The notes: generated by a model not told the origin, from the sequence alone. Counted from the first letter of the stretch, positions 27,604-44,394 are shown. The stretch: DNA of 64,000 bases from an uncultured Actinomycetota bacterium (GCA_963826265.1 CAWGWH010000002.1:1283246-1347245); one strand, 5' to 3'. Made by a program: numbers and translations.

Positions 27604-29781
27604 ATGCATCGTCAGATCGCCGGCCGGCTGACCGGCCCAGTCACCAAATGGTTCGTCTTCGCCGCCGTTCTCGGCATCACGGTCCTGATGGCCGGCCTCA
27701 ACTCCAAGCTGATCGACGTCCAGAACAACGAGGCCTCGTCCTGGCTGCCTGGCTCCGCCGAGTCCACGAAAGTGGTCGAGGAGCTCTCGGGGACGATCGA
27801 TCCCAACGACATCCCGACCTTGGTCGTCTACCACAGCAGCTCCGGTCTGACCGACGACGACTTCGCGGCGATGGACGAGCAGGCACAGGAGATCGCGGCG
27901 ATCGACGGGGTCACCGACGAGGGTGTGATCTCCCCGAATGCCGCGGCCGAGCTGGAGGCTCAGGGTCAGCCGGTGCCACCGCTCGTCTCCGAGGACGGCG
28001 AGGTCGCCTATCTCGCGCTCACGTTCAACTTCGGTGAGAACGGCTGGAACGACATCCCGGCCGCTGCCGACCAGATCCGCGAGATCGCGCAGATCGACGG
28101 CGTCACGGTGCACCTGGCCGGCTTCGGCGGCCAGGCGGCCGACGCGGCTGAAGCGTTCGAGGGCATCGACACCAACCTGATCATGATCACGCTGCTCGTG
28201 GTGATCGTGATCCTGTTGTTCACCTATCGCAGCCCGATCCTCTGGCTGCTGCCGATCATCTCGGCCGTCGTCGCCTACACGATCTCGGGTGGTGTGGTCT
28301 ACCTGCTGGCGAGGTACGCCGATCTCACCGTGAACGGGCAGAGCCAGGCGATCCTGGGCATCCTGGTGATCGGCGCCGGCACCGACTACGCCCTCCTGCT
28401 CGTGGCCCGATATCGCGAGGAGCTGCGCCGCCACGAGGATCGGCATGAGGCGATGGCGTTCGCCCTCCACCGGGCCGCCCCGGCGATCATGGCCAGCGCC
28501 GCGACCGTCGTGGTCGGCATGCTGTGCCTGAGCTTCGCCGAGCTCAACTCGACCGCCGGCCTCGGACCGGTCCTCGCCGTGGGCGTCAGCGTCACCTTCC
28601 TGGTGATGGTGACCCTGCTCCCGGCCATGCTCGTGATCTGCGGCCGCTGGATCTTCTGGCCGAAGCGGCCGGCGTTCGGCTCGCCGGAGCCGACCAGCTC
28701 GGGTTTCTGGTCCAGGGTCGGCGGCCGGATCGCGCCTCGTCCGCGCTTCGTGTGGTCGGTGACGGCAGGTCTGTTGCTGGTGGCCTGCCTCGGCCTGTTC
28801 AAGCTCGACCCGTCCGGGCTCGCGACCGAGGAGTCCTACACGAAGGAGTTCGACTCGATCCAAGGTCAGGCCCTGCTGGCCGACCACGGGCTCGACGACA
28901 CCTCCAACACCGTCCAGGTGGTCGCCAACTCCGATCAGGTCACCGCCGTGCAGGAGGCGATGACCGGCATCGAGGGCCTGGGCGAGGCCAGGCCGGTGCA
29001 GGAGATCGGCGACGGTCGCTCGTTCTTCGAGGCGACGATCAGAGCGGACATCTCGTCCACTGCGGCGTTCGAAATCGTCGAGTCGACCCGCGACGCCGTC
29101 CACGACGTCGACGGTGCTGATGCCCTGGTCGGCGGTGGGTCGGCCTTCTACCTGGACACCAAGATCGCTTCCGAGCGCGACAACCGGGTCATCATGCCGA
29201 TCGTGCTGGTCGTGGTGTTCTTGATCCTGATCCTCCTGCTGCGGGCGCTGGCCGCGCCCCTGATCCTGATGGGGACGGTGGTCCTGTCGTTCGGAGCCGC
29301 GCTCGGCATCGCCACCTTGCTGTTCACCGAGGTGTTCACCCGGGCGCCGTTCTTCGAGGTCAACGAGGGGTTCGCGCACACCGATCCAGGGTTCCCGCTG
29401 TTCACGTTCGTGTTCCTGGTCGCTCTCGGCATCGACTACAACATCTTCCTGATGACTCGCGTCCGCGAGGAGACGGCGACCCGTGGCACCCGAGAGGGCT
29501 CGCTCGTGGCGCTGTCCTCGACCGGGGGTGTGATCACCTCGGCCGGCCTGGTCCTGGCGGCCACGTTCCTGGTGCTGGGCTCGCTGCCGCTGGTGTTCCT
29601 GGCCCAGCTCGGGGTGGCGGTGGCGCTCGGGGTGCTGCTCGACACGATGATCGTGCGGTCCGTGCTGGTCACCGCGATCAACCTCGACCTGGGCGGGAAG
29701 ATCTGGTGGCCGAGCAAGCTCGACCGTGGCGAGCCGCGGAAGGAGGCTCCGGCTCCCGAGGAGGAGTGGGCCCCGGCCTGA
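27604..29781 (+). CDS. MMPL-family (RND superfamily) membrane transporter
   Basis: 725 aa with two 6-TM bundles, each preceded by an extracytoplasmic loop. MMPL-typical segments include GAGTDYALLLVARYREEL and GIDYNIFLMTRVREE. Confidence 0.9.
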   Translation: MHRQIAGRLTGPVTKWFVFAAVLGITVLMAGLNSKLIDVQNNEASSWLPGSAESTKVVEELSGTIDPNDIPTLVVYHSSSGLTDDDFAAMDEQAQEIAAIDGVTDEGVISPNAAAELEAQGQPVPPLVSEDGEVAYLALTFNFGENGWNDIPAAADQIREIAQIDGVTVHLAGFGGQAADAAEAFEGIDTNLIMITLLVVIVILLFTYRSPILWLLPIISAVVAYTISGGVVYLLARYADLTVNGQSQAILGILVIGAGTDYALLLVARYREELRRHEDRHEAMAFALHRAAPAIMASAATVVVGMLCLSFAELNSTAGLGPVLAVGVSVTFLVMVTLLPAMLVICGRWIFWPKRPAFGSPEPTSSGFWSRVGGRIAPRPRFVWSVTAGLLLVACLGLFKLDPSGLATEESYTKEFDSIQGQALLADHGLDDTSNTVQVVANSDQVTAVQEAMTGIEGLGEARPVQEIGDGRSFFEATIRADISSTAAFEIVESTRDAVHDVDGADALVGGGSAFYLDTKIASERDNRVIMPIVLVVVFLILILLLRALAAPLILMGTVVLSFGAALGIATLLFTEVFTRAPFFEVNEGFAHTDPGFPLFTFVFLVALGIDYNIFLMTRVREETATRGTREGSLVALSSTGGVITSAGLVLAATFLVLGSLPLVFLAQLGVAVALGVLLDTMIVRSVLVTAINLDLGGKIWWPSKLDRGEPRKEAPAPEEEWAPA

Positions 29782-29787
29782 CCGGGG

Positions 29788-30639
29788 TCACGGCACCGCG
29801 AGCAGGTCCTCGTGGTGGACGGTCACCCGGAGGGTGCCGGCCTGCGCCTGCGCCAGGCGTCGACGCGCGTACGGCGCGGCGACCGGTGCGAGCTCGGGTC
29901 GCTGCTCGACGGCGGCGCCGACCCAGCCGGTGACCCACGCCGCCGCCAGTGCGTGCTCGTCGGGACCGAGCCGCCACGGACTCGGGAGTGTGGTCACGGC
30001 GAGCCCGGCCGCGTCGAGCTGAGCGACGGCCGCGGCCGGGGCGTCAGGCCCGAGCAGCGTTCCTGAACCGGTCGCCCGCCGCTGGTGGGCGTTGAACGCG
30101 TCCATCACGTCCCCGTCGAGCTCGTCCGACGGCGCGAGCTCGGCGCGGCCGACCACCGAGAGCGTCACCAGCACCGGGCACCCGGCCACGAGGCATTCCG
30201 CGACCAGCCGTTCGAGCTCCGGAGCGGTCAGCATGTCGAGCAGCGCCGACGCCGTCACCAGATCGGCGTCGCTCAGCGACTCCGGGGGGAGCCGGGTGAT
30301 GTCGTCCAGACGGCGCTCGATCGTGGCAGCGCTGCCGTCGGCGGCCGCCGGCGGTGGGTACGCCGCCGCCCGGTCGAGCAGGTCGCGGTCCCGGTCGTGC
30401 AGTACCCACCGCTGGGGACCCGGCAGCCTCGGCGCGAGCCACCGCGCCATCGAACCGGTGCCGGAACCCAGGTCGTGGACCACCAGGCCGCCGTCGGCCG
30501 GCAGGACGCGGCGGAGCGCGTCGACGAGCCCACCGGCCCTGGCCGCCGCGTCGGCGGGCTCGCGGAGGGCGAGCCAGTCGCCGTCGGCACGGACCACCTC
30601 GGACCCCATGCCACCTCCCTCATCGTCGGACGTCGTCAC
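29788..30639 (-). CDS. SAM-dependent methyltransferase
   Basis: 283 aa with motif I VVHDLGSGTGS. It is convergent with the MMPL gene with a 6-nt gap. Confidence 0.7.
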   Translation of the reverse strand: MTTSDDEGGGMGSEVVRADGDWLALREPADAAARAGGLVDALRRVLPADGGLVVHDLGSGTGSMARWLAPRLPGPQRWVLHDRDRDLLDRAAAYPPPAAADGSAATIERRLDDITRLPPESLSDADLVTASALLDMLTAPELERLVAECLVAGCPVLVTLSVVGRAELAPSDELDGDVMDAFNAHQRRATGSGTLLGPDAPAAAVAQLDAAGLAVTTLPSPWRLGPDEHALAAAWVTGWVGAAVEQRPELAPVAAPYARRRLAQAQAGTLRVTVHHEDLLAVP

Positions 30640-30678
30640 GCTAGTGGAGCGCGGCCGCGGCCAGCGAGGGGGACGAAT

Positions 30679-31308
30679 TCAAGAGCTCAGACGCCTGAGA
30701 CTGGCGAGGACGTTGATCTCGCCGGCGTGTCCCACTCGGCCGGTCAGCGTGGCTTCACCGTCGAGCGGTGAGCCCAACACCCGTGCGACGGCGAGCTCGA
30801 GGTCTCCGGCCCTGACCAGCGTGACCATGCCCTCGTCGGTCACCGAGTCGACCGAGGTCACGTCCGGAGCCTCGCCGGAGGTGCCGCTTCCGCGCACCTG
30901 CATCCGGGGTGGGATGTCGACGCGCTCGCCATCTTGCTCGAAGTACATCTGCGCCTGCGTGCCGCCGGTCAGGATCGCGGCGGCCAGGGTGGCCGCCCAG
31001 ACCGGGTCGCCACAGCCGTCGTACACCCATCGATCCCCCAGCACGGAGTGCTCACTGGTCCCGATCAGGTGGGTCTCAGCCCCCGCGAGCGGAGTCGCAC
31101 GGTAGGTGAGCGGGGTCTGCAGCACGGCGCCGCCTTCGGACAGCCAGAGGATCGTCTCGACGCCCACCTCGCCGGCGGGATCGTCGAAGCGGTACTCGGC
31201 GAGCTTTTCCGCCACGGTGCGATCTGAGGCCCAGGACCGCGTCGGGAGCCACGACTCGACAAGCTCCTGCTTCGAGGGAGAGAGCGTGGCTCGGTGGACA
31301 ATGCCCAT
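30679..31308 (-). CDS. Maltokinase N-terminal cap-like domain protein (function unknown)
   Basis: 209 aa starting MGIVHRATLSPSKQELVESWLPTRSW, with ...YRFDDPAGEVGVE...LTYR...HSVLGDRWVYDGCGDPV. From memory, this matches stand-alone Mak_N_cap-like proteins. Confidence 0.55.
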   Translation of the reverse strand: MGIVHRATLSPSKQELVESWLPTRSWASDRTVAEKLAEYRFDDPAGEVGVETILWLSEGGAVLQTPLTYRATPLAGAETHLIGTSEHSVLGDRWVYDGCGDPVWAATLAAAILTGGTQAQMYFEQDGERVDIPPRMQVRGSGTSGEAPDVTSVDSVTDEGMVTLVRAGDLELAVARVLGSPLDGEATLTGRVGHAGEINVLASLRRLSS

Positions 31309-31412
31309 GACCGGACCCTACGCGGCTCTGACTTCGTGGCAGCTCCACAGGTGAACCCAGAACCAGCCGCGCCCGTTCCTCCTAACGGCGGCGGCCCAGC
31401 CGCCGCAGGGAG

Positions 31413-32138
31413 GTGGTCGTGGTGCCGGTCGGCCGGGCGCTCGCGGCTGGGCTCGTCGCGCTGTCCGCCCTGCTCGCCGGGCTGACGGCGAACCCCGGCC
31501 TGACTGTCCCGGCCTGGGGCACCGGGCTGGTGTGCGGCGGGCTGGTGGCGGTGGCGGTCGTCCGGGGCCTCGCTCGGGACGACGCAGATCACCTGACGCC
31601 GGCCGATGTGGTCACGCTGACCCGGGCCATGATCGCCTGCGCGGTCGCGGCCCTGATGGTGGAGTCGTGGCTCGGCCACACCGCGACGGCACTGCTCGTC
31701 GGGCTCGCGGTGATCGCCCTGGTGCTCGACTCGGTCGACGGCCGGGTGGCGCGGGTGACCCGGCGGTCGACCGGGTTCGGGGCGCGCTTCGACGGCGAGG
31801 CCGACGCGTTCCTCCTGCTCGTGCTCAGTGCCCACGTGGCGGCGTCGCACGGTGTCTGGGTGCTGGCGATCGGCGCCGCCCGCTACGCCTTCTGGGCGGT
31901 GGGGTCCGTCTGGCCGTGGCTGCGCAGTCCGCTCCCACGGCGCGACTGGCGCAAGGTCGTCACGGCCGTCCAGGGGATCGTGCTCGTCGCCGCCGCCGCG
32001 GACGTGGCGCCGCGGCCCGCGGTCACGCTGGCCCTGGTAGCGGCCCTGGTCCTGCTCACGGAGTCGTTCGGCCGAGACGTCCTCTGGCTGGTGCGGCGCC
32101 GGCCCCGGGCACGGCTCGTCGGAGCGTCCGCGCCGTGA
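31413..32138 (+). CDS. CDP-alcohol phosphatidyltransferase family protein
   Basis: 241 aa polytopic protein with a perfect DGx2ARx8Gx3Dx3D motif (DGRVARVTRRSTGFGARFDGEAD). Confidence 0.85.
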   Translation: MVVVPVGRALAAGLVALSALLAGLTANPGLTVPAWGTGLVCGGLVAVAVVRGLARDDADHLTPADVVTLTRAMIACAVAALMVESWLGHTATALLVGLAVIALVLDSVDGRVARVTRRSTGFGARFDGEADAFLLLVLSAHVAASHGVWVLAIGAARYAFWAVGSVWPWLRSPLPRRDWRKVVTAVQGIVLVAAAADVAPRPAVTLALVAALVLLTESFGRDVLWLVRRRPRARLVGASAP

Positions 32139-32896
32139 CCACCACCGACGACCGCGCCGCGTACGGGCTCGCCCTGGAGCAGGCACGGCAGGCGGCGTAC
32201 CCGCCCGGTGAGTACGTCGGGCAGGAGAGCTTCATGACGGCCTCCGAGATCCGCGCGCTGGCGGGGGGCGCGCGTATCGGCCGGGCGGACCGGGTGCTCG
32301 ACGTCTGCTGCGGGGTCGCCGGGCCGGGCCGTCTCGTGGCAGCCGAGACGGGATGTCGCTACCTCGGCGTCGACCTCGACCCGGGCGCTGTCGCGGCGGC
32401 CCGGCTGGCCGCGGCCGACCTGCCGTGCCGGTTCGAGGTACGCCGGGTGCCGCCCCTCCCGCCGGGAACCTTCGACGTCGTGCTGCTGCTCGAGACGTTG
32501 CTGGCCTTCCACGAGAAGCGGCCGCTGCTGGCGGCGGTCGCGGCAGCGCTGCGGCCCGGCGGCCGGTTCGCCCTGACGGTCGAGGAGGGGGCGCCGCTGA
32601 CCGCGCCGGAGCGAGCGAGGATGCCGGCGTCCGACACGGTGTTTCCGGTGCCGCTGCCCGACCTGGTCGACCTGCTGGAACAGGAGGGCTTCGGGGTCGA
32701 CTCGATCGAGGAGTGCAGTGATGCCCACCGGGACACGGCGGCGGCGCTGGCGGACGCGTTCGAGGCCGACGGGGTCTCGATCGGCGCCCAGATCGGGCTG
32801 GGCACGCTCGACGACCTGGTCGCGGCACACCGGCTCTGGGCCGAGTGGCTGGGTGCCGGCCGGATCCGCAAGCTGTCCCTCATTGCCGTCCGGTGA
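32135..32896 (+). CDS. Class I SAM-dependent methyltransferase, translationally coupled to the phosphatidyltransferase
   Basis: The GTG start overlaps the upstream stop (GTGA at 32135-32138). Motif I is VLDVCCGVAGPG. Confidence 0.8.
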   Translation: MTTTDDRAAYGLALEQARQAAYPPGEYVGQESFMTASEIRALAGGARIGRADRVLDVCCGVAGPGRLVAAETGCRYLGVDLDPGAVAAARLAAADLPCRFEVRRVPPLPPGTFDVVLLLETLLAFHEKRPLLAAVAAALRPGGRFALTVEEGAPLTAPERARMPASDTVFPVPLPDLVDLLEQEGFGVDSIEECSDAHRDTAAALADAFEADGVSIGAQIGLGTLDDLVAAHRLWAEWLGAGRIRKLSLIAVR

Positions 32897-32994
32897 ACCG
32901 CCGTCCGGTGAACCGCGGGGCGGCACCGCCCGTTCTCCCGGGTGACATCGCTCCGCGACCGTCGCGGGAGCGATCCCGACGAAGGGAGTGGCTC

Positions 32995-33411
32995 ATGGGC
33001 ACGCGCGTGCTGGCGGCGCTGGCGGTGCTGGTGTCGGCGGGGGTGCACCTCTACCTCTGGGACGACGGCTACAAGGACCTCGACAAGATCGGGCCCGCGT
33101 TCCTTCTCAACGCGGCCGGTGGGGTGGTGATCGCGGTGCTCCTGCTCGCCTGGTCCCACTGGATCCCGGCGTTCCTGGCACTCGGGTTCGGGGTGTCGAC
33201 GCTCGGCGCCTTCATCATCTCGACCACTGTGGGGCTCTTCGGACTGGAGGAGTCGTGGGAGGGCTGGTACGTGTGGACGGCGGCGGGTTCGGAGGTGGCC
33301 GCGATCCTGCTGGGTGGGATGCTCCTGCTCCGCAACAACCCGCTGCGCCCAGGTGGCTCAGGTGGCGAGTCGCAGCACCACGCGGCCGTCCGTCGTCCGG
33401 ACCTCCACTGA
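32995..33411 (+). CDS. Small 4-TM membrane protein, function unknown
   Basis: 138 aa from ATG 32995, preceded by GAAGGGAG. The 3' end overlaps the convergent anti-sigma gene by 54 nt. Confidence 0.5.
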   Translation: MGTRVLAALAVLVSAGVHLYLWDDGYKDLDKIGPAFLLNAAGGVVIAVLLLAWSHWIPAFLALGFGVSTLGAFIISTTVGLFGLEESWEGWYVWTAAGSEVAAILLGGMLLLRNNPLRPGGSGGESQHHAAVRRPDLH

Positions 33412-34080
33412 GGCGAGCTCGGCGGGCGTACGCGCGGTGGCGGCCATGATCGTCATCTCGCGGCCGCCCACCGACCGCCAGCTGCCGACCTGCTCCATGC
33501 GCCCGGTCCGAGTCCGCACGAACAGCTCGTAGTCGGCCTCCGGAGGCAGGTCGTAGGGGACCGCGTCCGGGTCGTAGGTGCACGTGAGCCCGACCCGGGT
33601 TCCCCAGGTGACCTCCTCCAGGCTCACGGTGGCCCGGACCGGCACCTCGCCGACCGGTGCCATCTGCAGCTCCGGCACCGGTTCCTCCGACACGTCGGCC
33701 GTGGGCTGCCCGGGCGGCGGTGCGGGGTCCTCGCCGAGCTGCGCGAGGCCCACGGGTACGACGACGAGCAGCGCCGAGGCGGCAGCGATCCCGGCCGTGA
33801 GCAGCGTGCGGCGGCGCCGGCTGCGTCGTACCTCGCCCATCAGCGCGGGCAGCAGTGTCGGCGGCGGCTCGTGCACCGGCCCGGCCATCGGCTCCTCGAG
33901 CACCGTGGCGTCGACGCGTCCGAGCAGGCCGGGGAGCCCCGCCAGCGCGGCAACCGACCGGGTGCAGACCGCGCACGTGGCCAGGTGCTGCTTGAAGGCC
34001 ACCCGCTCGGCCGGGGAGAGCGCTCCCAGCACGTAGGCGCCGTCGTCGTGCACGAACTCGCAGCTCATGGGGGTGTTCAT
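33358..34080 (-). CDS. Anti-sigma factor (zf-HC2 type) with one TM segment and an extracytoplasmic domain
   Basis: 240 aa from ATG 34080 (MNTPMSCEFVHDDGAYVLGALSPAERVAFKQHLATCAVC). Its start overlaps the sigma gene stop (ATGA). Confidence 0.75.
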   Translation of the reverse strand: MNTPMSCEFVHDDGAYVLGALSPAERVAFKQHLATCAVCTRSVAALAGLPGLLGRVDATVLEEPMAGPVHEPPPTLLPALMGEVRRSRRRRTLLTAGIAAASALLVVVPVGLAQLGEDPAPPPGQPTADVSEEPVPELQMAPVGEVPVRATVSLEEVTWGTRVGLTCTYDPDAVPYDLPPEADYELFVRTRTGRMEQVGSWRSVGGREMTIMAATARTPAELASVEVRTTDGRVVLRLAT

Positions 34081-34610
34081 GCCTCCACCCCCAGTTCCTC
34101 GAGCGCCAGCCGCAGCGCGCGCAGCGCGTAGTGCGTACGTGACTTCACCGTGCCCTCGGGGACCTCCAGGCGCCGGGCCGCCTCGGCGACCGGCCGGCCA
34201 CGGTAGTAGCACTCGAGCAGCACGTCGCGGTGCTCGCGTGACAGGCGGGTGAGTGCCTCGGCCACGACCCACGACAGCAGCAGCTGGTCACTCTCGTCGG
34301 CCACCCCGTCGTCGGGCAGCTCGGCGAGCGGCGTCTCGCGGTGGGAGCGGCTGCTCCGCCACTGGTCGATCACGATGTTGCGGGCGACGGTGAAGAGCCA
34401 CGCCCGCACCGCCTGCGGCGGACTCTCCAGGATGGTGCGGTGCCGCCAAGCGCGCAGCAGCGTCTCCTGGGCCACGTCCTCGGCCCGACCCTGGTCGGTG
34501 GGCACGAGCCGTCGGCAGTAGCGCCACAGGGCGACCGCGTGGTCGTCGTGCAGCTGCTGCATGAGCATGACGTCGGGATCGGGCACTGGATTGGACACCT
34601 GCTTCCTCAC
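34077..34610 (-). CDS. ECF-type RNA polymerase sigma factor
   Basis: 177 aa. Region 2 reads DVAQETLLRAWRH. Region 4 reads RDVLLECYYRGRPVAEAARRLEVPEGTVKSRTHYALRAL. Confidence 0.9.
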   Translation of the reverse strand: MRKQVSNPVPDPDVMLMQQLHDDHAVALWRYCRRLVPTDQGRAEDVAQETLLRAWRHRTILESPPQAVRAWLFTVARNIVIDQWRSSRSHRETPLAELPDDGVADESDQLLLSWVVAEALTRLSREHRDVLLECYYRGRPVAEAARRLEVPEGTVKSRTHYALRALRLALEELGVEA

Positions 34611-34640
34611 CCCTACACACGGTCCGCGATCCGCGCGGGT

Positions 34641-36338
34641 TCACCGCGGTCCGGTCGGCCGGTCCCCATTGTGGCTGCCACCGGCGTACGCCGCGACGAA
34701 ACGGTCCCGGAACGCGTCCATCCGCCACACCGGGGCGTCCGGCTCCGGTCGCAGGCCGGCGTCCCAGCCCCAGCCGGCGATCCGGTCGAGCACGGCCGGG
34801 TCGCGCGCGATCACCGCGACCGGCACGTCGTTCCCGGCATCGGACCCGGACACGATCGTGGCCGGCTGGTGGTCGCCCAGCACGACCACCACGAGGTCGT
34901 CGTCGCCATAGGTCGTCACGAACCGGACGAACGCCCGCAGTGAGTAGGTGACGGCGTCGAAGTAGGCCTGCCGCACCCGCTCGCGGTCGGGCCAGATGTC
35001 CGCCTCGGACGGGAGTGTCTGCGGCATCCCGTCGAAGACCGAGCCGTCGCCGACGTCGGCCTGGTCGATCAGCCGGGGGACCCGCGACCAGGGCGCGTGG
35101 CTGGTGATCAGGTCGATCTCCGCCATCACCGGCCGGCGCGGGTGCGGCGCGAGCTCGAGCCGGTGGAACGCGTCGAGGGTGTACTGGTCGGGCATCGTGG
35201 GGTAGCCGAACCGTGGGCCCTCGTAGCCGACGTTGCGCGAGTCGTAGACGTGGTCGAAGTCGTAGAACTCACCCTGCGGCCAGTCCCGGTTGTTGGCGGG
35301 GACGGAGGCCACCGTGCGCCAACCGGCCCGGCCGAACAGCCGCGTGAGGGTCAGCCGGGGGCTGGTCACCAGCACGTCGTACCGCGGCTGGCTGTCGATC
35401 CAGAGGCCCGACTGGAGCGTGGCGTGGGCCAGCCAGCTGAGTGCGCCGAAGGTCGGCGAGGTGAGGTAGGCGCTCCGGCTCTCGAAACCGGCCTCTTCCA
35501 GCTGCTCGTTGCCGGCGTCCATCGTGTACGTGACCCGCGGGGAGAGATCCGGATCCTCCAGCGCCACCCGGCCCAGGCTCTCGACGAAGACGATCAGCAC
35601 GTCCTTGCCGCGCAGGCCCTCGAGCAGGTCCTCGCCGGGCACGTCTCCCAGCGGATCGGAGCGGGAGGCCACCAGGAACTCGCGGCGGTCCGCCAGCTGC
35701 CCCGGGATCCGGGTGACCTGGCCCTGCACGTAGGTGGCGGTGTCGTGGCTGGCGATCGGACCGGCCGGGCCGCGTACGTCGAGCAGCGTGAGCACCAGCC
35801 AGAGCGCCGTCAGTACGGCCACCGCCGGCAGCGCCACGGCGCGGTGACGCGACGCCACCCGGGCTACCCGCAGCACCGCGAGCGGCAGCAGCACGAGCAG
35901 CGCGACCACGGCCACCCCACCCCCGACCACGAGGAGGGTGCCCAGCCGCGGCCCGAAGGAGTCGCGGACGGTCTCGACCAGGGAGGCGGCGTACCGCCAG
36001 TCGATCAGGGGGTCGAAGGGCCGGTTCAGCGCCTCGACGAACCCGATGTCGAACAGCTTGAACACCGCGGCCAGACCGAGGACCACCCCCGCGGTCATCG
36101 CCAGCGCCGAACGCAGCCACGCCGGCCGCGCCGGGACGAGCAGCACGGCAGCGACCAGGAGCACTGCTTCGACGGGCAGCCGGAGGAACGCCGAGGGACG
36201 CAGGTCCTCGAGGCTCGTCGGGGCGGTCATTGCCGCGACCACCAGGGCGAGCGCGAGCACCGACCGGACTACGGAGCCGACGCGTGTCCACCACGGGACG
36301 GAACCGGGTTGAACCGAGCGCACGGCCACTCCGTTCAC
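34641..36338 (-). CDS. Membrane-anchored sulfatase / LtaS-like (alkaline-phosphatase superfamily) phospho-headgroup transferase
   Basis: 565 aa with about 5 N-terminal TM segments, then VLIVFVESLG (metal-binding Glu context), TSPTFGALSW (candidate Thr nucleophile) and VVVLGDHQP. The start codon is GTG and the exact start is uncertain. Confidence 0.7.
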   Translation of the reverse strand: MNGVAVRSVQPGSVPWWTRVGSVVRSVLALALVVAAMTAPTSLEDLRPSAFLRLPVEAVLLVAAVLLVPARPAWLRSALAMTAGVVLGLAAVFKLFDIGFVEALNRPFDPLIDWRYAASLVETVRDSFGPRLGTLLVVGGGVAVVALLVLLPLAVLRVARVASRHRAVALPAVAVLTALWLVLTLLDVRGPAGPIASHDTATYVQGQVTRIPGQLADRREFLVASRSDPLGDVPGEDLLEGLRGKDVLIVFVESLGRVALEDPDLSPRVTYTMDAGNEQLEEAGFESRSAYLTSPTFGALSWLAHATLQSGLWIDSQPRYDVLVTSPRLTLTRLFGRAGWRTVASVPANNRDWPQGEFYDFDHVYDSRNVGYEGPRFGYPTMPDQYTLDAFHRLELAPHPRRPVMAEIDLITSHAPWSRVPRLIDQADVGDGSVFDGMPQTLPSEADIWPDRERVRQAYFDAVTYSLRAFVRFVTTYGDDDLVVVVLGDHQPATIVSGSDAGNDVPVAVIARDPAVLDRIAGWGWDAGLRPEPDAPVWRMDAFRDRFVAAYAGGSHNGDRPTGPR

Positions 36339-36349
36339 ACGACCGACGA

Positions 36350-36390
36350 GGGAACACGAGAAGGAACGAGCAGGTCGCCGCTCCGGTTCA
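36350..36390. promoter_or_regulatory. Palindromic ECF-type promoter motif readable on both strands in the 87-bp divergent region
   Basis: Plus strand: GGAAC(36363-36367)-N17-GGTTC(36385-36389). Minus strand: TGAACC-N16-CGTTCC. An additional GGGAAC lies at 36350-36355. Confidence 0.3.
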
Positions 36391-36424
36391 CCGGCGCGGG
36401 GATGGCCCGGGAGTTGGTGGTCCG

Positions 36425-37423
36425 ATGCAGCGGGAGGCGTGGGCGTTCTGGTTGCGCGAGCCGGGCGCGGGAGAGATCCGGCCTGCCCGGCTCACACCAC
36501 CTGGGCCCGACGACGTGCTGGTCCGCACCGTGTGCTCCGGGGTGAGCCGTGGCACCGAGTCGCTGGTCTTCAGCGGGAGGGTCCCGACCGGGCAGCGCGC
36601 CGTCATGCGCGCGCCGTTCCAGGAGGGGGAGTTCCCGGCGCCGGTGAAGTACGGCTACCTCAACGTGGGAGTCGTCGAGGTCGGGCCGTCCGGGCTGCTG
36701 GGACGCACCGTCTTCTGTCTGCACCCCCACCAGACGGCGTACGTCGTCCCCGCCTCGGCGGTGACCCTGGTGCCCGACGACGTCCCGGCGCGCCGGGCGG
36801 TCCTGGCCGGACTGGTCGAGACCGCGGTCAACGCGCTCTGGGACGCCGGCCCGCTGCTCGGTGACCGGGTGGCCGTGGTGGGCGCCGGAGCCCTGGGCTG
36901 CTGCGTCGCCCGGCTGCTGGTCGCGATCCCCGGGGTCTCGGTGACGTTGGTCGACGTCGACCCCGGCCGAGCCGCGGTCGCGGCGGCCCTGGGCGTCGGC
37001 TTCTCGCTGCCCGGTGACGCGCCGGGCGACCTGGACCTCGTGATGCACACGAGTGCCACGTCGAAGGGGCTGCAACGGTCCCTGGAGCTGCTCGCGCCGG
37101 AGGGCACCGTCGTCGAGCTCAGCTGGTACGGCGACGCCGAGACGACCCTGTCGCTGGGAAGTGGCTTCCACTCCGGCCGGCTGACGATCCGCGGCAGCCA
37201 GGTCGGGTCGATCGCGGCGGCACGTCGTGTGCGGTGGACCACGGCCGACCGGCTCCGGCTCGCGCTCGACCTCCTGCGTGACCCGGCTTTCGACGTACTT
37301 CTGACCGGCCGATCCCGTTTCGCCGACCTCCCCGCGGTGCTGCCCAGGCTGGTGAGCGGCGAGCTCCCCGCCCTGTGCCACTCGGTGTCCTACGAGGACG
37401 GTGACCTGCCGTGTTCAGCGTGA
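36425..37423 (+). CDS. MDR-superfamily dehydrogenase (BchC-like subgroup, SGxSxGTE motif)
   Basis: 332 aa from ATG 36425 with GGGAG upstream. It has [10 protein letters not shown] and the Rossmann motif [10 protein letters not shown]. Confidence 0.85.
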
Positions 37424-37803
37424 GCGTGCGCGACCACATGATGGTCGCCCACAGCCTGCGCGGCGACGTCTTCGGCCCGGCGCAGGCGCTGCACGGTGCG
37501 ACGTTCGTGGTGGACGCGACGTTCGCCGGGCCGGCCGTGGACGACGACGGGATCCTGGTCGACATCGGCCGGGCCGCCGGCGCGCTGCGGGTGGTGGTCG
37601 CAGACCTGGGCTACCGCAACCTCGACGAGGACGACCGGTTCGTCGGTCGCAACACCACGACCGAGGTGCTGGCCCAGCACGTGGCCGACCGGTTGGCCGA
37701 GCAGGTCGGCGGCGAGGGACTGGGCGACGGCCGCGTGACCCGCCTGACGGTCACCCTGCACGAGTCGCACGTCGCGCGGGCGAGCTACGAGAGAGGGGTA
37801 TGA
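37411..37803 (+). CDS. 6-pyruvoyl-tetrahydropterin synthase / QueD-family T-fold protein, predicted non-canonical
   Basis: 130 aa with MMVAHSL...LHGATF aligning to the QueD AAHRL...C..LHGHSF region. The GTG start overlaps the upstream gene by 13 nt. Confidence 0.8.
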
Positions 37804-38843
37804 GTGTGACCCCGATCGTGACGATGGTCGCCCCGGACGGGGTCGGTGACCCGCTCCGGCCGAGCGGTGGCAACACCTACGACCGTCGGCTGTGCCAGGA
37901 GCTGGCGGCCGCCGGGTGGGCTGTCGACCTGCAGCTGGTCCCAGGTGGCTGGCCGCGGGCCGACGCGGAGTCACGTCTCCACCTGGCGGCCGTCCTGGCC
38001 CGGCCACCCGCCGGCGCCTCGGTGCTGCTCGACGGGCTGGTCGCGCTCGCCGCACCCGACGTGGTGGTGCCGGAGGGCCGGCGCCTCCGGACGGTGGTGA
38101 TCGTGCACATGCCGCTCGGCTACGCAGGCGAAGGAGCCGTGCTGCGCTCGGCGACCGCCGTCGTCGCCACCAGTCACTGGACCCGCCGCTGGCTGCTCTC
38201 CCGCCACCGGCTCGACCCGGCCCGCGTGCACGTCGCCGCACCGGGCGTCGATCCCGCACCGCCGGCAGCTGGGAGCCCCGAAGGCGGCTCCCTCCTGTGC
38301 GTCGGCGCGGTGGTGCCGGCGAAGGGGCACGACCTGCTCGTCGCCGCGCTGGCCTCGGTCGCCGACCTGCCCTGGCGGTGCGTGTGCGTGGGCCCGCTGG
38401 ACCGCGATCCGACGTACGTCGCCCGGCTCCGCGCCGACATCGCGGCGGCCGGCCTCGGCGACCGGGTCGAGCTCACCGGGCCGCTCACCGGGGGGCGCCT
38501 CGCCGCGGCCTACGCGGCGGCCGACGTCCTGGTGCACGCCAGCCGGGCCGAGACCTACGGGATGGTCGTCACCGAGGCGTTGGCCCGAGGTCTGCCGGTG
38601 GTCGCGTGTGCGGCGGGTGGGGTGCCGGAAGCGCTGGGGGCCGCACCCGACGGCGGCACGCCGGGTGTGCTCACCCCCGTCGACGACGTCGACGCCCTGG
38701 CACGCGCCCTGCGCGGCTGGATCACGGACGCCGGACTGCGCAGACGGTTGCGGGCCGCCGCACGGAGCCGACGGCCGCAGCTGGCCGACTGGCTGGCCAC
38801 GGGCCACCGGGTGGCCCGGGTGCTCGAGGACGTGGCGGCATGA
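37800..38843 (+). CDS. GT-B fold glycosyltransferase (GT4-like)
   Basis: 347 aa with the EX7E motif ETYGMVVTE followed by [10 protein letters not shown]. An ATGA overlap couples it to the upstream gene. Confidence 0.85.
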
Positions 38844-39724
38844 GTCCCCGGTGGGGGTGGCTCCTGGGTTCCGCCGTGCTCGTTGCCGTGGTGTGGTGGC
38901 TCGGTACCGACCCGTTCGTGAGCGGCGTACGCGCCCTCGACGTCGAGACCTTGGCGGTGGGCGCGGCGCTGGGCGTGCCGATCACCGTGGCGAGTGCGTG
39001 GCGCTGGCGACTGGTGGCGCGTGGACTGGGCGTCGACCTGCCGGTGGGCCGGGCGACGGCGGCCTGCTACCGGTCCCAGCTCCTCAACTCGGTGCTCCCC
39101 GGTGGGGTCCTCGGTGACGTGCACCGAGGCCTCGACCACGGACGCGCCGCCGGTGACTCGGCCCGCGGGCTGCGCTCGGTCGCCTGGGAGCGGACGGCGG
39201 GCCAGATCGTGCAGGCGTCGGTCGCCGTCCTCGTCCTGGTGCTGATGCCGTCACCGGCGCGGTCGTCGCTGCCGGGGATGCTCACGATCCTGGTCGTCGG
39301 CGTGGTGCTGCTCGCGGTCCTCGTGCGCCGCTGGTCGACGCTGCGAGCCGACCTCGCAATGCTGCTCGAGCGGCGGATCTGGCCCGGCGTGGTGCTGGCC
39401 TCGACCGTGGTCGTGGCCGGCCTGGTGGCGACCTTCGTCGTCGCCGCCCGTGCGGTCGGCGTCACCGCACCGCTGCCGACCCTGGTGCCGCTGGCAGTGC
39501 TGGTGCTGGTCGCGGCGGCCGTGCCCTCGAACCTGGCGGGGTGGGGGCCCCGCGAGGGCATGGCCGCCTGGGCGTTCGCCGCAGCCGGCCTGGGCGCGGA
39601 GCAGGGCCTGGCCACGTCGGTCGCGTTCGGCGTCATGGTGGTGGTGGCCGTGCTGCCGGGCGTCGCGGTGCTCGTCGTCGGGACGCGTGCGCGGGAAAGA
39701 GCGGAGGAGCCGGTCCATGGCTGA
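38840..39724 (+). CDS. LPG_synthase_TM / UPF0104-family membrane protein (homologous to the MprF flippase domain)
   Basis: 294 aa with about 8 TM segments and WRWRLVARGLGVDLPVGRATAACYRSQLLNSVLPGGVLGDVHRG. It has an ATGA overlap upstream and an 8-nt overlap downstream. Confidence 0.7.
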   Translation: MSPRWGWLLGSAVLVAVVWWLGTDPFVSGVRALDVETLAVGAALGVPITVASAWRWRLVARGLGVDLPVGRATAACYRSQLLNSVLPGGVLGDVHRGLDHGRAAGDSARGLRSVAWERTAGQIVQASVAVLVLVLMPSPARSSLPGMLTILVVGVVLLAVLVRRWSTLRADLAMLLERRIWPGVVLASTVVVAGLVATFVVAARAVGVTAPLPTLVPLAVLVLVAAAVPSNLAGWGPREGMAAWAFAAAGLGAEQGLATSVAFGVMVVVAVLPGVAVLVVGTRARERAEEPVHG

Positions 39725-40412
39725 GCGCCCGTACACGATCCTCAGCTGCGGGGTCTCGATCGACGGCTATCTCGACGCCGCGACCCCCGAGCGGCTGGTG
39801 CTCTCGAACGACGACGACCTGCGGCGGGTTGACGCCGTCCGGGCGGACGTCGACGCGATCCTGGTCGGCGCCGAGACCGTACGCCACGACAACCCCCGGC
39901 TGCTCGTGCGCGACGCCCGGCTGCGCGAGTGCCGGCGGGCCCGCGGGCTGGGCGAGCACCCGATGAAGGTGACGGTGACGCGAGGTGGTCGGCTCGACCC
40001 GACGGCGTGCTTCTTCGCGACCGGCGACTGCGAGAAGGTCGTCTACTGCGAACGAGGGAGCGTCGAGGCGGCCCGTGCCCGCCTGGGCTCGGTCGCGACC
40101 GTGGTCGACGGAGGTGACCCGGTAGCCATCCGCAGCCTGAGCGAGGACCTCTGGGGGCGCGGCGTACGACGGTTGATGGTCGAGGGGGGCGGGCAGATCC
40201 ACACGCAGTTCCTCACCGCCGGGCTCGCCGACGAGCTGCACCTGGTGGTGGCGCCGTTCTTCGTCGGCGACCCGCGGGCCCGCCGCTTCGTGGGGGCCGG
40301 CGCCTTCCCGTGGCACCCGGGGCACCGGGCGCACCTCGCGGAGACCCGTCAGATGGGCGACGTGGTGCTGCTGCGCTACGCCTTCGCTCCGGACCGGGAG
40401 GCCGTGTCGTGA
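39717..40412 (+). CDS. RibD C-terminal-domain reductase (diaminopyrimidine ribosyl reductase type) lacking a deaminase domain
   Basis: 231 aa with SIDGYLD, ILVGAETVRHDNPRL and MVEGGGQIHTQFLTAGLADELHLVVAPFFVG. Confidence 0.85.
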   Translation: MAERPYTILSCGVSIDGYLDAATPERLVLSNDDDLRRVDAVRADVDAILVGAETVRHDNPRLLVRDARLRECRRARGLGEHPMKVTVTRGGRLDPTACFFATGDCEKVVYCERGSVEAARARLGSVATVVDGGDPVAIRSLSEDLWGRGVRRLMVEGGGQIHTQFLTAGLADELHLVVAPFFVGDPRARRFVGAGAFPWHPGHRAHLAETRQMGDVVLLRYAFAPDREAVS

Positions 40413-41038
40413 GGCGCGCGACGGTACGCCGCTCGGTGCGGATGCCGCTGCGCATGGGCGGGGGAGAGGTCGTCGACGGCGTGGTGCACACCTTCGACGG
40501 CCTGGTGGACGACGCCGAGCACCTCGTGGTGGGGCTCGGTGTCGTCCAGGCGGGCAGGGTGCCGCTGGTGCGGCTGCACAGCGAGTGCCTGACCGGGGAC
40601 GCACTGGGCAGCGCCCGCTGCGACTGCGGCCCGCAGCTGGCCGAGGCGGTCGAGCGGCTGTCCGAAGTCGGCGGCTACCTCGTGTACCTGCGGCAGGAGG
40701 GGCGGGGGATCGGGCTGTACAACAAGATCGACGCCTACGCACTGCAGGATCGCGGGCTCGACACGTTCGAGGCGAACCGAGCGCTGGGTTTCGGCGACGA
40801 CGAGCGCTCGTACGGCGTGGCGGCGCAGATGCTCCTCGCGCTCGGGGTCGACCGGGTCACTCTGCTCACGAACAACCCCGACAAGGTCGGCCAGCTGCAC
40901 GCCGCGGGCGTGACCGTCGAGGACTTCCTGACCACCGGGCTGCACCTCTCGCCGGTCAACCGGCGCTACCTGTCGGCCAAGGCCGGCCACGGCCACCGGT
41001 TGCTCGGCCTGCTCGCGACGCACGCCGATCCGGCGTGA
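40409..41038 (+). CDS. ribA: Monofunctional GTP cyclohydrolase II
   Basis: 209 aa with LHSECLTGDALGSARCDCG (zinc Cys triad), YLRQEGRGIGLYNKIDAYALQD and LLTNNPDKV. A GTGA overlap couples it to the upstream gene. Confidence 0.92.
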   Translation: MRRATVRRSVRMPLRMGGGEVVDGVVHTFDGLVDDAEHLVVGLGVVQAGRVPLVRLHSECLTGDALGSARCDCGPQLAEAVERLSEVGGYLVYLRQEGRGIGLYNKIDAYALQDRGLDTFEANRALGFGDDERSYGVAAQMLLALGVDRVTLLTNNPDKVGQLHAAGVTVEDFLTTGLHLSPVNRRYLSAKAGHGHRLLGLLATHADPA

Positions 41039-41068: not shown

Positions 41069-42025
41069 TCAGGCCGCCAGGTCGGGGTCACCCAGCCGGC
41101 GCAGCCGGTTGAGGGCCTCGCGCTCGAGCTGGCGTACCCGCTCGGCGGAGATGCCGTGCGTGGTCCCGATGTCGGCGAGCTTGTGCTGGCGGCCGTCGAC
41201 CAGGCCGTAGCGCGACCGGATGATGTCGGCCGACCGGTCGTCGAGCTGGCCGACCAGTGCGTTGAGCCGCTCGCGCGCCTCGTGGTCGAGCACGTCGAGG
41301 TCAGGCCCCGGGGTGCTCTCCTGCGCGATCAGGTCACCCAGCGAGGTGTCGCCGTCCTCATCGACCGGCGAGTCGAGGCTGACGTGCTCGCGACCCCACG
41401 AGAGGAGGTCGAGGACGCGCTCGAAGTCCATCCCGAGCTCGGCGGCGATCTCCTCCGGCTCCGGGTCGCGGCCGAGCTGGCGCTCCAGGGTGCGGCGGGC
41501 GCCGCCGACCTGGTTGAGCTCCTCGACGACGTGCACGGGGAGGCGTACGACGCGAGCCTGCTGCGCGATGCCGCGGGTGATCGCCTGACGCACCCACCAG
41601 GTCGCGTAGGTGGAGAACTTGTAACCCTTCGCGTAGTCGAACTTCTCGACAGCGCGGATCAGGCCGGTATTGCCCTCCTGGATCAGGTCCAGCATGGGCA
41701 TCTGGGCGCGGCCGTACTTGCGGGCGATCGAGACGACCAGCCGCAGGTTGGCGTTGATGAACGTGTTGATGGCGCGCTGGCCCTCTTCGGCCAGCCATTC
41801 CAGCTCTTCGCGGCTGGCGCGCATCGGGGCGCCGCCCTTGGCGCGGGCGATCCGGCCGGTGTCGAGCAGGTGCTGGGCCATCAGGCCTGCCTCGATCGTC
41901 TTGGCCAGCTCCACCTCGGTGGCGGCGTCGAGCAGCGGGTTGCGCGCGATCTCGTCGAGGTACAGCCCTACGCTGTCGCGACCCTCGATCTCGCGGGCCC
42001 GGGCGGTCGTGGTGCGTGTCGCCAT
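41069..42025 (-). CDS. Sigma-70 family, group-2-like RNA polymerase sigma factor (SigB/HrdD type)
   Basis: 318 aa from ATG 42025 with GGAAGGGGG upstream. It has regions 1.2 to 4 ([56 protein letters not shown]). Confidence 0.9.
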   Translation of the reverse strand: MATRTTTARAREIEGRDSVGLYLDEIARNPLLDAATEVELAKTIEAGLMAQHLLDTGRIARAKGGAPMRASREELEWLAEEGQRAINTFINANLRLVVSIARKYGRAQMPMLDLIQEGNTGLIRAVEKFDYAKGYKFSTYATWWVRQAITRGIAQQARVVRLPVHVVEELNQVGGARRTLERQLGRDPEPEEIAAELGMDFERVLDLLSWGREHVSLDSPVDEDGDTSLGDLIAQESTPGPDLDVLDHEARERLNALVGQLDDRSADIIRSRYGLVDGRQHKLADIGTTHGISAERVRQLEREALNRLRRLGDPDLAA

Positions 42026-42053
42026 GGTGCAGCCCCCTTCCTTACGTCTCTCC

Positions 42054-42079
42054 AACGCTCACGAAACCCTGTGGATTCC
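42054..42079 (-). promoter_or_regulatory. ECF-type promoter candidate upstream of the group-2-like sigma gene
   Basis: The minus strand reads GGAAT-N17-CGTT, about 30 nt upstream of ATG 42025. Confidence 0.3.
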
Positions 42080-44370: not shown

Positions 44371-44377
44371 GTGAGCC

Positions 44378-44387
44378 AATCTAGTGT
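44378..44387. promoter_or_regulatory. Two overlapping -10-like hexamers for back-to-back leaderless transcripts
   Basis: Minus strand: TAGATT (complement of 44378-44383) lies 7 nt before ATG 44370. Plus strand: TAGTGT (44382-44387) lies 7 nt before GTG 44395. Confidence 0.4.
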
Positions 44388-44394
44388 GGCGACG

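Follow-up and report, generated by a model that had tools for sequence, protein, structure and literature searches.

What does an actinobacterial gene cluster make when it combines enzymes that act on GTP with enzymes that couple, flip and transfer lipid-borne groups? This question is raised by positions 29788-41038 of a 64,000-nucleotide stretch of DNA from an uncultured Actinomycetota bacterium (GCA_963826265.1 CAWGWH010000002.1:1283246-1347245), the whole of which we refer to as the window. A preliminary description had linked the genes of this interval into a system that makes a lipid-linked head group inside the cell, flips the lipid and transfers the head group outside, under the control of a sigma factor of the extracytoplasmic function (ECF) class and next to an MMPL exporter. 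Our analysis partly supports this linkage: synteny, gene fusion and a shared promoter hold the core of the system together, and the MMPL transporter and a Mak_N_cap protein fall outside it. We see about an even chance that the interval, minus its Mak_N_cap gene, is one conserved functional unit under SigL-type control that leads from GTP to an envelope-associated product, the chemistry of which we infer from the enzymes encoded.

Conservation and fusion of the cluster genes

Because the window is actinobacterial DNA of 72% G+C, genes were called from third-position GC frame analysis and start-codon context, giving one gene model, and domains were assigned by Pfam and NCBIfam profile searches of the window proteins. 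The interval extends exactly from the stop of one methyltransferase gene to the stop of a GTP cyclohydrolase II gene. Every domain named in the preliminary description was recovered here; its count of "two or three methyltransferases" comes to two, a third not being found.

Six genes on the plus strand are joined by stop-to-start overlaps of 4-13 nt. They encode an MDR-type NAD(P) dehydrogenase, polyol-dehydrogenase-like and BchC-like (ADH; 36425-37423, 332 aa), a PTPS-like T-fold protein (37411-37803, 130 aa; PF01242, 76 bits), a GT4 (GT-B) glycosyltransferase (37800-38843, 347 aa; Pfam Glycos_transf_1, 103 bits), a flippase-like protein of the LPG_synthase_TM family (LPG_TM; 38840-39724, 294 aa; PF03706, 79.7 bits), a RibD_C-type pyrimidine reductase (39717-40412, 231 aa; Pfam RibD_C, 127 bits) and GTP cyclohydrolase II (GCH II; 40409-41038, 209 aa; Pfam, 179 bits). 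Also on the plus strand, the stop of a CDP-alcohol phosphatidyltransferase gene (CDP-OH; 31419-32138, 239 aa; CDP-OH_P_transf, PF01066, 52.5 bits) overlaps the start of S-adenosylmethionine (SAM) methyltransferase 2 (MT2; 32135-32896, 253 aa; Pfam methyltransferase domains), and on the minus strand the stop of an ECF sigma gene of SigL type (34077-34610, 177 aa; NCBIfam NF007227) overlaps by 4 nt the start of a zf-HC2 anti-sigma gene (33358-34080, 240 aa; Pfam zf-HC2 and NCBIfam anti-sigma matches). These overlaps indicate that each group is an operon. The set further includes SAM methyltransferase 1 (MT1; 29788-30609, minus strand, 273 aa; Pfam Methyltransf_25), an LtaS-like membrane protein with several transmembrane segments and a Sulfatase domain (34641-36338, minus strand; Pfam Sulfatase, 26.1 bits against a cut-off of 25) and a small membrane protein of 138 aa with about three hydrophobic segments (32995-33411, plus strand); the latter and MT2 are regarded as accessory. 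Identical copies with the same starts, on a 1.93-Mb contig, are present in a public protein collection for nine proteins (ADH, PTPS-like, CDP-OH, flippase-like, GT4, MT1, GCH II, RibD_C and Mak_N_cap), and the LtaS-like protein is given there as 560 aa, starting five codons downstream of the start called here. Among the matches listed, Nocardioides species are the closest named relatives.

To survey related loci, a library of protein-cluster representatives was searched with the window ADH and diverse matches were aligned as a scan query. A 12-sequence ADH alignment was used, a 46-sequence version being too divergent for pattern design, and with it at least 597 loci were found in a genome set with one member per GTDB species. 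The locus counts below rest on the best 80 of these with 10-kb flanks, presence being scored as a tblastn match of each window protein; where the denominator is 81, one Nocardioides locus entered twice (L001 and L003). The 80 loci include Nocardioidaceae, Streptomyces, Micromonospora, Actinoplanes, Dactylosporangium, Kutzneria, Amycolatopsis, Actinokineospora, Terrabacter, Humibacillus, Cellulomonas, Kribbella and Spirillospora, as well as Thermoleophilia (Solirubrobacterales and Gaiellales).

Nine genes are co-inherited with one another across Actinomycetes and Thermoleophilia. In addition to ADH, these are PTPS-like (80/81 loci; 61/61 of those with full flanks), GT4 (76/81; 59/61), LPG_TM (73/81; 56/61), CDP-OH (71/81; 56/61), RibD_C (65/81; 42/61), MT1 (57/81; 43/61), GCH II (54/81; 45/61) and LtaS-like (53/81; 44/61), the full-flank subset of 61 loci giving the same picture as all 81. 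An unbiased all-against-all clustering of the open reading frames (ORFs) called in the 80 loci yielded, beyond the families of the window, none present in more than eight loci. The accessory genes are narrower in distribution: MT2 was found in 20/81 loci, from Nocardioidaceae and Thermoleophilia, and the small membrane protein in 18/81, always adjoining the LtaS-like gene. Co-occurrence and neighborhood conservation, by which the preliminary description had proposed to check its reading, are thus borne out for the GTP-processing genes, GT4, CDP-OH, the flippase-like gene and the LtaS-like gene in two classes.

The arrangement of the genes is conserved as well. The usual order in other genomes is <CDP-OH >ADH >PTPS >GT4 >MT1 >LPG_TM >RibD_C >GCH II, with the LtaS-like gene beside CDP-OH; CDP-OH is divergent from ADH and within 600 bp of it in 51 of 70 loci, and MT1 is mostly a member of the operon, with GT4 on one side and the flippase-like gene on the other. 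The window operon is the orthologous counterpart of an orphan Streptomyces coelicolor cluster around SCO6650 (PDB 3d7j) and the GCH II paralogue SCO6655. In Streptomyces loci, the T-fold position is taken by orthologues with 80-95% identity to SCO6650, and the genes have the order CDP-OH, ADH, PTPS, GT4, MT1, LPG_TM, GCH II. The window differs from them in having a canonical, Tyr-type GCH II and a close RibD_C, whereas Streptomyces has a Met-type GCH II, a creatininase-family gene and a RibD_C of only ~30% identity; the window also adds the LtaS-like gene, MT2, the SigL pair and the small protein, all of them missing from most Streptomyces loci. In S. coelicolor, two proteins of the cluster were characterized singly over 15 years ago without being placed in a pathway, and full-text searches brought up no paper describing the function of an SCO6650-type cluster. 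These proteins are now tied to a nine-gene unit that is conserved in Thermoleophilia and in soil Actinomycetes.

The strongest argument that lipid coupling and outward transfer belong to one pathway is a Rosetta-stone fusion. Both genes are present in 48 loci, and in 37 of these CDP-OH and the LtaS-like gene stand side by side and point the same way, as a single uninterrupted ORF in 21 and as separate genes in 16; in the window, MT2, the small protein gene and the sigma/anti-sigma pair come between them. The fused ORFs of Kribbella qitaiheensis (779 aa) and Marmoricola (745 aa) each contain PF01066 and PF00884 and retain the CDP-OH motif together with the FVES, SPTFG and GDH motifs. In a long-read metagenome-assembled genome (MAG; L008, 18000-19420, minus strand), the CDP-OH ORF enters the LtaS-like N-terminus and meets an in-frame stop, past which LtaS-like sequence goes on without a change of frame; the locus has either a pseudogene or a fused gene marred by a sequencing error.

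Both enzymes have invariant residues at catalytic or putative catalytic positions. In CDP-OH, which has 6-7 hydrophobic segments by hydropathy, the catalytic motif D-x2-D-G-x2-A-R-x8-G-x3-D-x3-D is intact and D104, D107, G108, A111, R112, G121, D125 and D129 are invariant among 22 homologues; the protein falls outside the characterized PgsA, PssA, PIP synthase, Cls and CPT/EPT subfamilies, with a best NCBIfam equivalog score of 27.6 against a cut-off of 180. In the LtaS-like protein, residues 20-186 contain five hydrophobic segments and are followed by a 350-aa soluble domain in which E253, T296, S413-H414 and D489-H490 are invariant across 25 diverse homologues. T296 lies in the context TSPTFG, and the C/S-x-P-x-R formylglycine motif of true sulfatases is missing. 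The only significant PDB match of a profile built from the 25 homologues is the Listeria lipoteichoic acid (LTA) primase LtaP (4uop, E 1.3e-5), in which T296 aligns with the Thr of an SNTADAE stretch; judging from Staphylococcus aureus LtaS, we presume this Thr to be the nucleophile. By analogy, the LtaS-like enzyme would take a phospho-head group off a membrane phospholipid and pass it to an extracytoplasmic acceptor, and the fusion in 21 loci lends circumstantial support to this role. Clear LtaS orthologues have been reported missing in Actinobacteria (PMC3196553), which gives the family extra interest.

Predicted SigL-type regulation

The ECF sigma factor passes the NCBIfam model NF007227 (217 bits against a cut-off of 202) and finds its best PDB match in Mycobacterium tuberculosis SigL (6dv9_F, E 1.9e-43), and its anti-sigma factor carries the zinc motif H-x3-C-x2-C (HLATCAVC) and one transmembrane segment. 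Alignment of the regions upstream of ADH in ECF-bearing loci revealed two conserved divergent copies of TGAACC-N16-CGT. This motif equals the published M. tuberculosis SigL consensus, in which the -35 element is TGAACC and the -10 element CGTGTC (PMC2703886). It occurs five times in the 64-kb window against 0.36 expected, a count reached in 0 of 100 shuffles, and all five copies lie upstream of cluster units in the correct orientation, with none elsewhere in the 64 kb.

The copies precede the CDP-OH/MT2 operon (31352-31376, plus strand), the small membrane protein gene (32909-32933, plus), the ECF sigma gene (34619-34643, minus), the ADH-to-GCH II operon (36310-36334, plus) and the LtaS-like gene (36366-36390, minus). 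Five of the six transcription units, including that of the sigma gene itself, carry a SigL-type motif; the exception is the Mak_N_cap/MT1 unit, and the MMPL gene has no such motif either. The CGT at the sigma gene ends 8 nt before its GTG start codon, suggesting a leaderless, autoregulated transcript. No sigma-70 consensus promoter was found in the region, nor any Rfam family, including the flavin mononucleotide (FMN) riboswitch, in the window.

The motif is similarly conserved elsewhere. In 14 ECF-bearing related loci, it lies upstream of ADH in all 14, of CDP-OH in 10, of the sigma gene in 10, of the small protein gene in 6 and of the LtaS-like gene in 5. It also precedes cluster genes in Terrabacter, Micromonospora, Cellulomonas, Kribbella, Actinoplanes and Kutzneria, in which no ECF gene was found within 10 kb. 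In Micromonospora and Terrabacter, copies stand inside the operon, 37-70 nt upstream of the flippase-like gene (for example L056, 13268(+); L064, 13346(+); L073, 12466(+)), which suggests an internal SigL-type promoter served by a sigma factor encoded elsewhere. As a constant member of the cluster, the ECF pair of the preliminary description is not supported: it is a lineage-specific neighbor, the sigma factor occurring in 17/81 loci, from Nocardioidaceae and relatives, and the anti-sigma factor in 12/81.

The module resembles SigL-RslA of M. tuberculosis in its SigL-like sigma factor, its overlapping gene for a membrane-bound H-x3-C-x2-C anti-sigma factor and its TGAACC-N16-CGT motif, and differs in its targets, M. 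tuberculosis SigL driving pks10-pks7, mpt53 and Rv1139c-Rv1138c. Mycobacterial loci are not among the best 80 of the at least 597 found, and the genes described here define a compact SigL-type regulon outside mycobacteria. The SigL regulon has been described as small and oriented to the envelope and to lipids (PMC4105308).

Two further observations concern the promoters themselves. Those at 36310-36390 cross, each lying within the transcribed leader of the other, with predicted starts ~10-15 nt apart; as the crossing sites are nearly palindromic (TGAACC...CGTTCA), their strand assignment rests on asymmetric versions in more distant genomes. An initial promoter candidate, GGAAC-N15-18-SGTT, was rejected, having 2 matches against 1.97 expected and lying upstream of ADH in only one of the 14 ECF-bearing loci. 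It is the reverse complement of part of the nearly palindromic TGAACC-N16-CGT sites.

A proposed pathway from GTP and its alternatives

The GTP-processing enzymes occur in two variants that differ in the GCH II residue at a switch position and in the partner genes. The window GCH II (249 bits against NF001591, cut-off 148) keeps R49, C54, C65, C67, E92, R94, Y105, D126, R128 and K154, that is, the zinc-binding Cys triad, the catalytic Arg, Glu and Lys residues and the Tyr at the position of Escherichia coli Y105 that is needed for deformylation. A Tyr at this position characterizes 30 loci of the window type, most of which have a close RibD_C orthologue and none of which has a creatininase-family gene (0/30). 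The variant of Streptomycetaceae, Pseudonocardiales and Spirillospora, comprising 20 loci with GCH II and 2 truncated loci, has Met, His or Leu at Y105, and all 22 encode a creatininase-family protein (PF02633, E 3e-62). Close RibD_C homologues co-occur with Tyr-type GCH II; a divergent RibD_C (~30% identity) is found in 11 loci, 10 of them of the creatininase type, adjoining the creatininase gene where checked. In one Gaiellales MAG (L005), the three zinc-binding Cys positions of GCH II align as Phe, Ser and Ser; this GCH II may be inactive, or the assembly or alignment may be in error.

SCO6655, which has Met at the switch position, is said to have been found by Spoonamore et al. in 2006 to stop at the formylamino-pyrimidine ribotide. 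The creatininase-family protein BrbF is a proven formamidase that converts the formylamino-pyrimidine ribotide to the diaminopyrimidine ribotide (PMC9478397). A Tyr-type GCH II on the one hand, and a Met-, His- or Leu-type GCH II with a creatininase-type formamidase on the other, would thus converge on the same diaminopyrimidine intermediate, which marks 2,5-diamino-6-ribosyl/ribitylamino-pyrimidinone 5'-phosphate as the putative committed precursor. The RibD_C protein carries no deaminase domain in Pfam, and its best NCBIfam model is the archaeal 2,5-diamino-6-ribosylamino-pyrimidinone 5'-phosphate reductase (ArfC, TIGR01508), with a score of 130.8 bits that is below the equivalog cut-off of 186.45. 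The predicted route is like that of archaeal ArfA, ArfB and ArfC in riboflavin and F420 synthesis, and like bacterial BrbF, of whose family the Streptomyces-type variant has a member, in passing from GTP to a (formylamino-)diaminopyrimidine ribotide and in reducing it without prior deamination. It differs from these systems in that the window cluster lacks later riboflavin or FO enzymes and is embedded among genes of lipid and glycosyl transfer.

The T-fold protein is close to SCO6650 (PDB 3d7j, E 1.9e-45) and matches its family well, with scores below the cut-offs of the NCBIfam QueD and PTPS models; relative to a sequence that we take to be that of E. coli QueD, its HGH reads HGA and no Cys occupies the catalytic position, and the same holds for SCO6650. 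The likeness of ADH to polyol and threonine dehydrogenases is confined to its Rossmann half. In two database proteins, P0101 (494 aa; PF00107 and PF01242) and P0398 (715 aa), ADH is apparently fused to a PTPS-like domain, or else extended; the fusions may be genuine, or they may have arisen from gene calling at the 13-nt overlap. The nearest solved relatives of the GT4 enzyme are sucrose-phosphate synthase, MshA, PimA and PimB', whose substrates are phosphorylated sugars or polyols, or phosphatidylinositol. The flippase-like protein matches positions 1-301 of the 302 in the PF03706 profile, the family that holds the flippase domain of the lysyl-phosphatidylglycerol synthase/flippase MprF; it differs from MprF in consisting of the transmembrane domain only, without the C-terminal aminoacyl-phosphatidylglycerol synthase domain, and no similarity between it and a sequence of known structure was detected. 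The small membrane protein has no match in Pfam or NCBIfam.

The make-up of the cluster points to an undescribed cell-envelope component. As a possible though tentative reading, we propose that many Actinomycetota make a phospholipid with a GTP-derived head group, which is flipped by an MprF-like protein and used by a distant LtaS-type enzyme to decorate a surface structure or to polymerize it, the whole being induced by an envelope signal of SigL type. The head group would be a glycosylated and methylated polyol phosphate of the ribitylamino-diaminopyrimidine or pterin-like kind. Synthesis would begin with GCH II, which is predicted to convert GTP to 2,5-diamino-6-ribosylamino-4(3H)-pyrimidinone 5'-phosphate, and continue with the deaminase-less RibD_C, which would reduce this ribosylamino compound to its ribityl form, a polyol phosphate. 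ADH and the catalytically altered PTPS-like protein could then remodel the polyol phosphate, possibly via a 2'-keto intermediate to a pterin-like ring; we speculate that C1' reduction followed by C2' oxidation would mimic the Amadori step of GTP cyclohydrolase I and permit closure to a dihydroneopterin-phosphate-like ring. The GT4 enzyme and one or both methyltransferases would glycosylate and methylate the remodeled compound. At the cytoplasmic face, CDP-OH would couple the compound or a derivative to a CDP-activated lipid, with CDP-diacylglycerol as the likely donor since the cluster contains no cytidylyltransferase. The flippase-like protein would move the resulting lipid to the outer leaflet, where the LtaS-like enzyme, with its putative Thr nucleophile and metal site, may hand the phospho-head group on to an acceptor outside the cytoplasm or polymerize it, releasing diacylglycerol. 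This scheme would run parallel to polyglycerol-phosphate LTA synthesis (PgsA, then phosphatidylglycerol, then LtaS/LtaP), with which the window shares a CDP-alcohol phosphatidyltransferase, an enzyme of about five transmembrane segments with an extracytoplasmic domain of putative alkaline-phosphatase fold, and conserved Glu, Thr and Asp-His catalytic positions. It differs in the marginal similarity to LtaP (E 1.3e-5), in the fusion of the two enzymes in many genomes, which to our knowledge is not known for PgsA and LtaS, and in the linkage of the pair to GTP enzymes, a GT4 and a homologue of the MprF flippase rather than to a glycolipid-anchor flippase of LtaA type. Expression of the gene set would be switched on when the SigL-like sigma factor is freed from its membrane-bound zinc anti-sigma factor. 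In four Solirubrobacterales loci (L004, L025, L036 and L040), a membrane acyltransferase gene (Acyl_transf_3, PF01757, E 3e-37) stands between LPG_TM and the CDP-OH::LtaS-like gene, and the inserted enzyme of these Thermoleophilia may O-acylate the product.

Several points weigh against this proposal. The LtaS-like gene is present in only 3 of 15 Streptomycetaceae loci, so that outward transfer is not obligatory; in those Streptomyces that lack it, the lipid itself may be the end product. The PDB profile matches of CDP-OH are confined to the motif region. For the LtaS-like protein, a shallow alignment led to a poor AlphaFold model (pLDDT 57.5), and a Foldseek search with it places LtaS, LtaP, EptC and PbgA on top at weak values (E ~4e-3, TM 0.24-0.32). 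The T-fold protein is possibly not catalytic, as one zinc-binding His and the catalytic Cys of PTPS/QueD are missing, and the N-terminal half of ADH is too divergent for its zinc ligands to be assigned. On the side of regulation, the control of five units by SigL-type promoters is suggested by sequence and conservation only, and MT1 has no SigL motif of its own in the window.

A first alternative, which we regard as unlikely, is that two pathways are merely co-regulated, one yielding a soluble glycosylated cofactor or protectant of pyrimidine or pterin type and the other an ordinary phospholipid-derived polymer, with only a SigL envelope-stress regulon and a neighborhood in common. The GT4 relatives MshA and sucrose-phosphate synthase act on soluble phosphorylated acceptors, GT4-type enzymes make pterin glycosides in cyanobacteria and green sulfur bacteria, and most Streptomyces clusters are without the LtaS-like gene, all of which would fit such a division. 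Against such a division, the flippase-like gene is one of the genes of the "soluble" operon, joined to them by overlaps of stop and start codons (73/81 loci), CDP-OH and ADH diverge from one another within 600 bp in 51 of the 70 loci, CDP-OH is kept in 14 of 15 Streptomycetaceae where the LtaS-like gene is mostly absent, and the tight linkage holds across two classes.

Somewhat less probable still is a second alternative, in which CDP-OH and the LtaS-like enzyme are the "missing" LTA machinery of Actinobacteria, a dedicated synthase of phosphatidylglycerol (or its phosphate) feeding a distant LtaS that polymerizes glycerol phosphate, and the GTP-derived product only decorates or primes the polymer. 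The fusion of a CDP-OH enzyme with an LtaS-like domain would suit a path from phosphatidylglycerol to polyglycerol phosphate, the only solved relative found by the profile search is an LTA primase, and LTA-making Actinobacteria have been reported without clear LtaS orthologues (PMC3196553). Against this, CDP-OH is not close to PgsA-type enzymes and its matches to solved structures are weak and motif-limited, and Streptomyces, a genus with characterized LTA, mostly lacks the LtaS-like gene in the cluster. Nor would this alternative account for the obligatory link with GCH II, RibD_C, ADH and the T-fold protein.

A third alternative, stress-inducible paralogous supply of riboflavin or F420 precursors with the membrane genes as unrelated neighbors, is very improbable: GCH II and RibD_C are indeed the first enzymes of riboflavin and FO biosynthesis, but the deaminase domain is absent, the all-against-all clustering of the 80 loci gave no other conserved family of the riboflavin pathway next to the cluster, an FMN riboswitch was not found in the window, about one full-flank locus in four lacks GCH II, with ADH, T-fold, GT4 and CDP-OH persisting, and the CDP-OH::LtaS-like fusions and shared promoters tie the membrane genes in. 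On the same evidence of synteny, fusion and promoters, both riboflavin supply and chance juxtaposition were rejected.

The analysis turns the orphan cluster into a concrete, testable hypothesis by adding a fused gene pair, a regulator and the promoter motif that goes with it, and two converging enzyme routes. The link of the cluster to CDP-OH and an LtaS-like enzyme, the fusion of these two, the SigL-type regulon and the correlation of the GCH II switch residue with the creatininase gene all appear to be new. If the proposal of a GTP-derived lipid head group is true, the use of GTP as a source of a phospholipid head group would be unprecedented in bacteria, and the cluster would represent a new LtaS-type transfer system in Actinobacteria and a candidate for the LtaS-like activity reported missing there.

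Genes outside the conserved unit

Two genes that the preliminary description had named are not part of the system. The MMPL transporter gene at the left border (27604-29781, plus strand; 390 bits) has no SigL-type promoter, the Mak_N_cap gene (30679-31308, minus strand; Pfam/NCBIfam) has no SigL-type motif on its strand, and both are absent from all related loci (0/81 as counted, 0/80 distinct). In Nocardioides sp. GXQ0305 (L001/L003), the closest named genome, the GH3 gene abuts MT1 and MT1 abuts CDP-OH, with MMPL absent, whereas in the window the MMPL gene is placed between the GH3 gene and MT1; the contiguity of GH3, MT1 and CDP-OH in that genome indicates that MMPL and Mak_N_cap are insertions specific to the genome of the window. 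The stand-alone Mak_N_cap protein (209 aa) passes the NCBIfam model "CG0192-related protein" (175 bits against a cut-off of 165), and its position between MT1 and CDP-OH is, in comparison with the 80 related loci, found only in the genome of the window.

On the right flank, the genes for a SigB-like sigma factor, a prolyl oligopeptidase and DinB are each found in 3/81 loci. The SigB-like protein, a group-2 sigma-70 factor of 328 aa (41069-42055, minus strand), is encoded directly after the cluster and is not a member of it, adjoining it only in the three closest loci (91% identity). The longest ORF of the prolyl oligopeptidase gene (42238-45264, minus strand) has 1008 aa, its Pfam domains begin at residue 306 and the L001 orthologue has 721 aa, from which the true start probably lies ~290 codons downstream.

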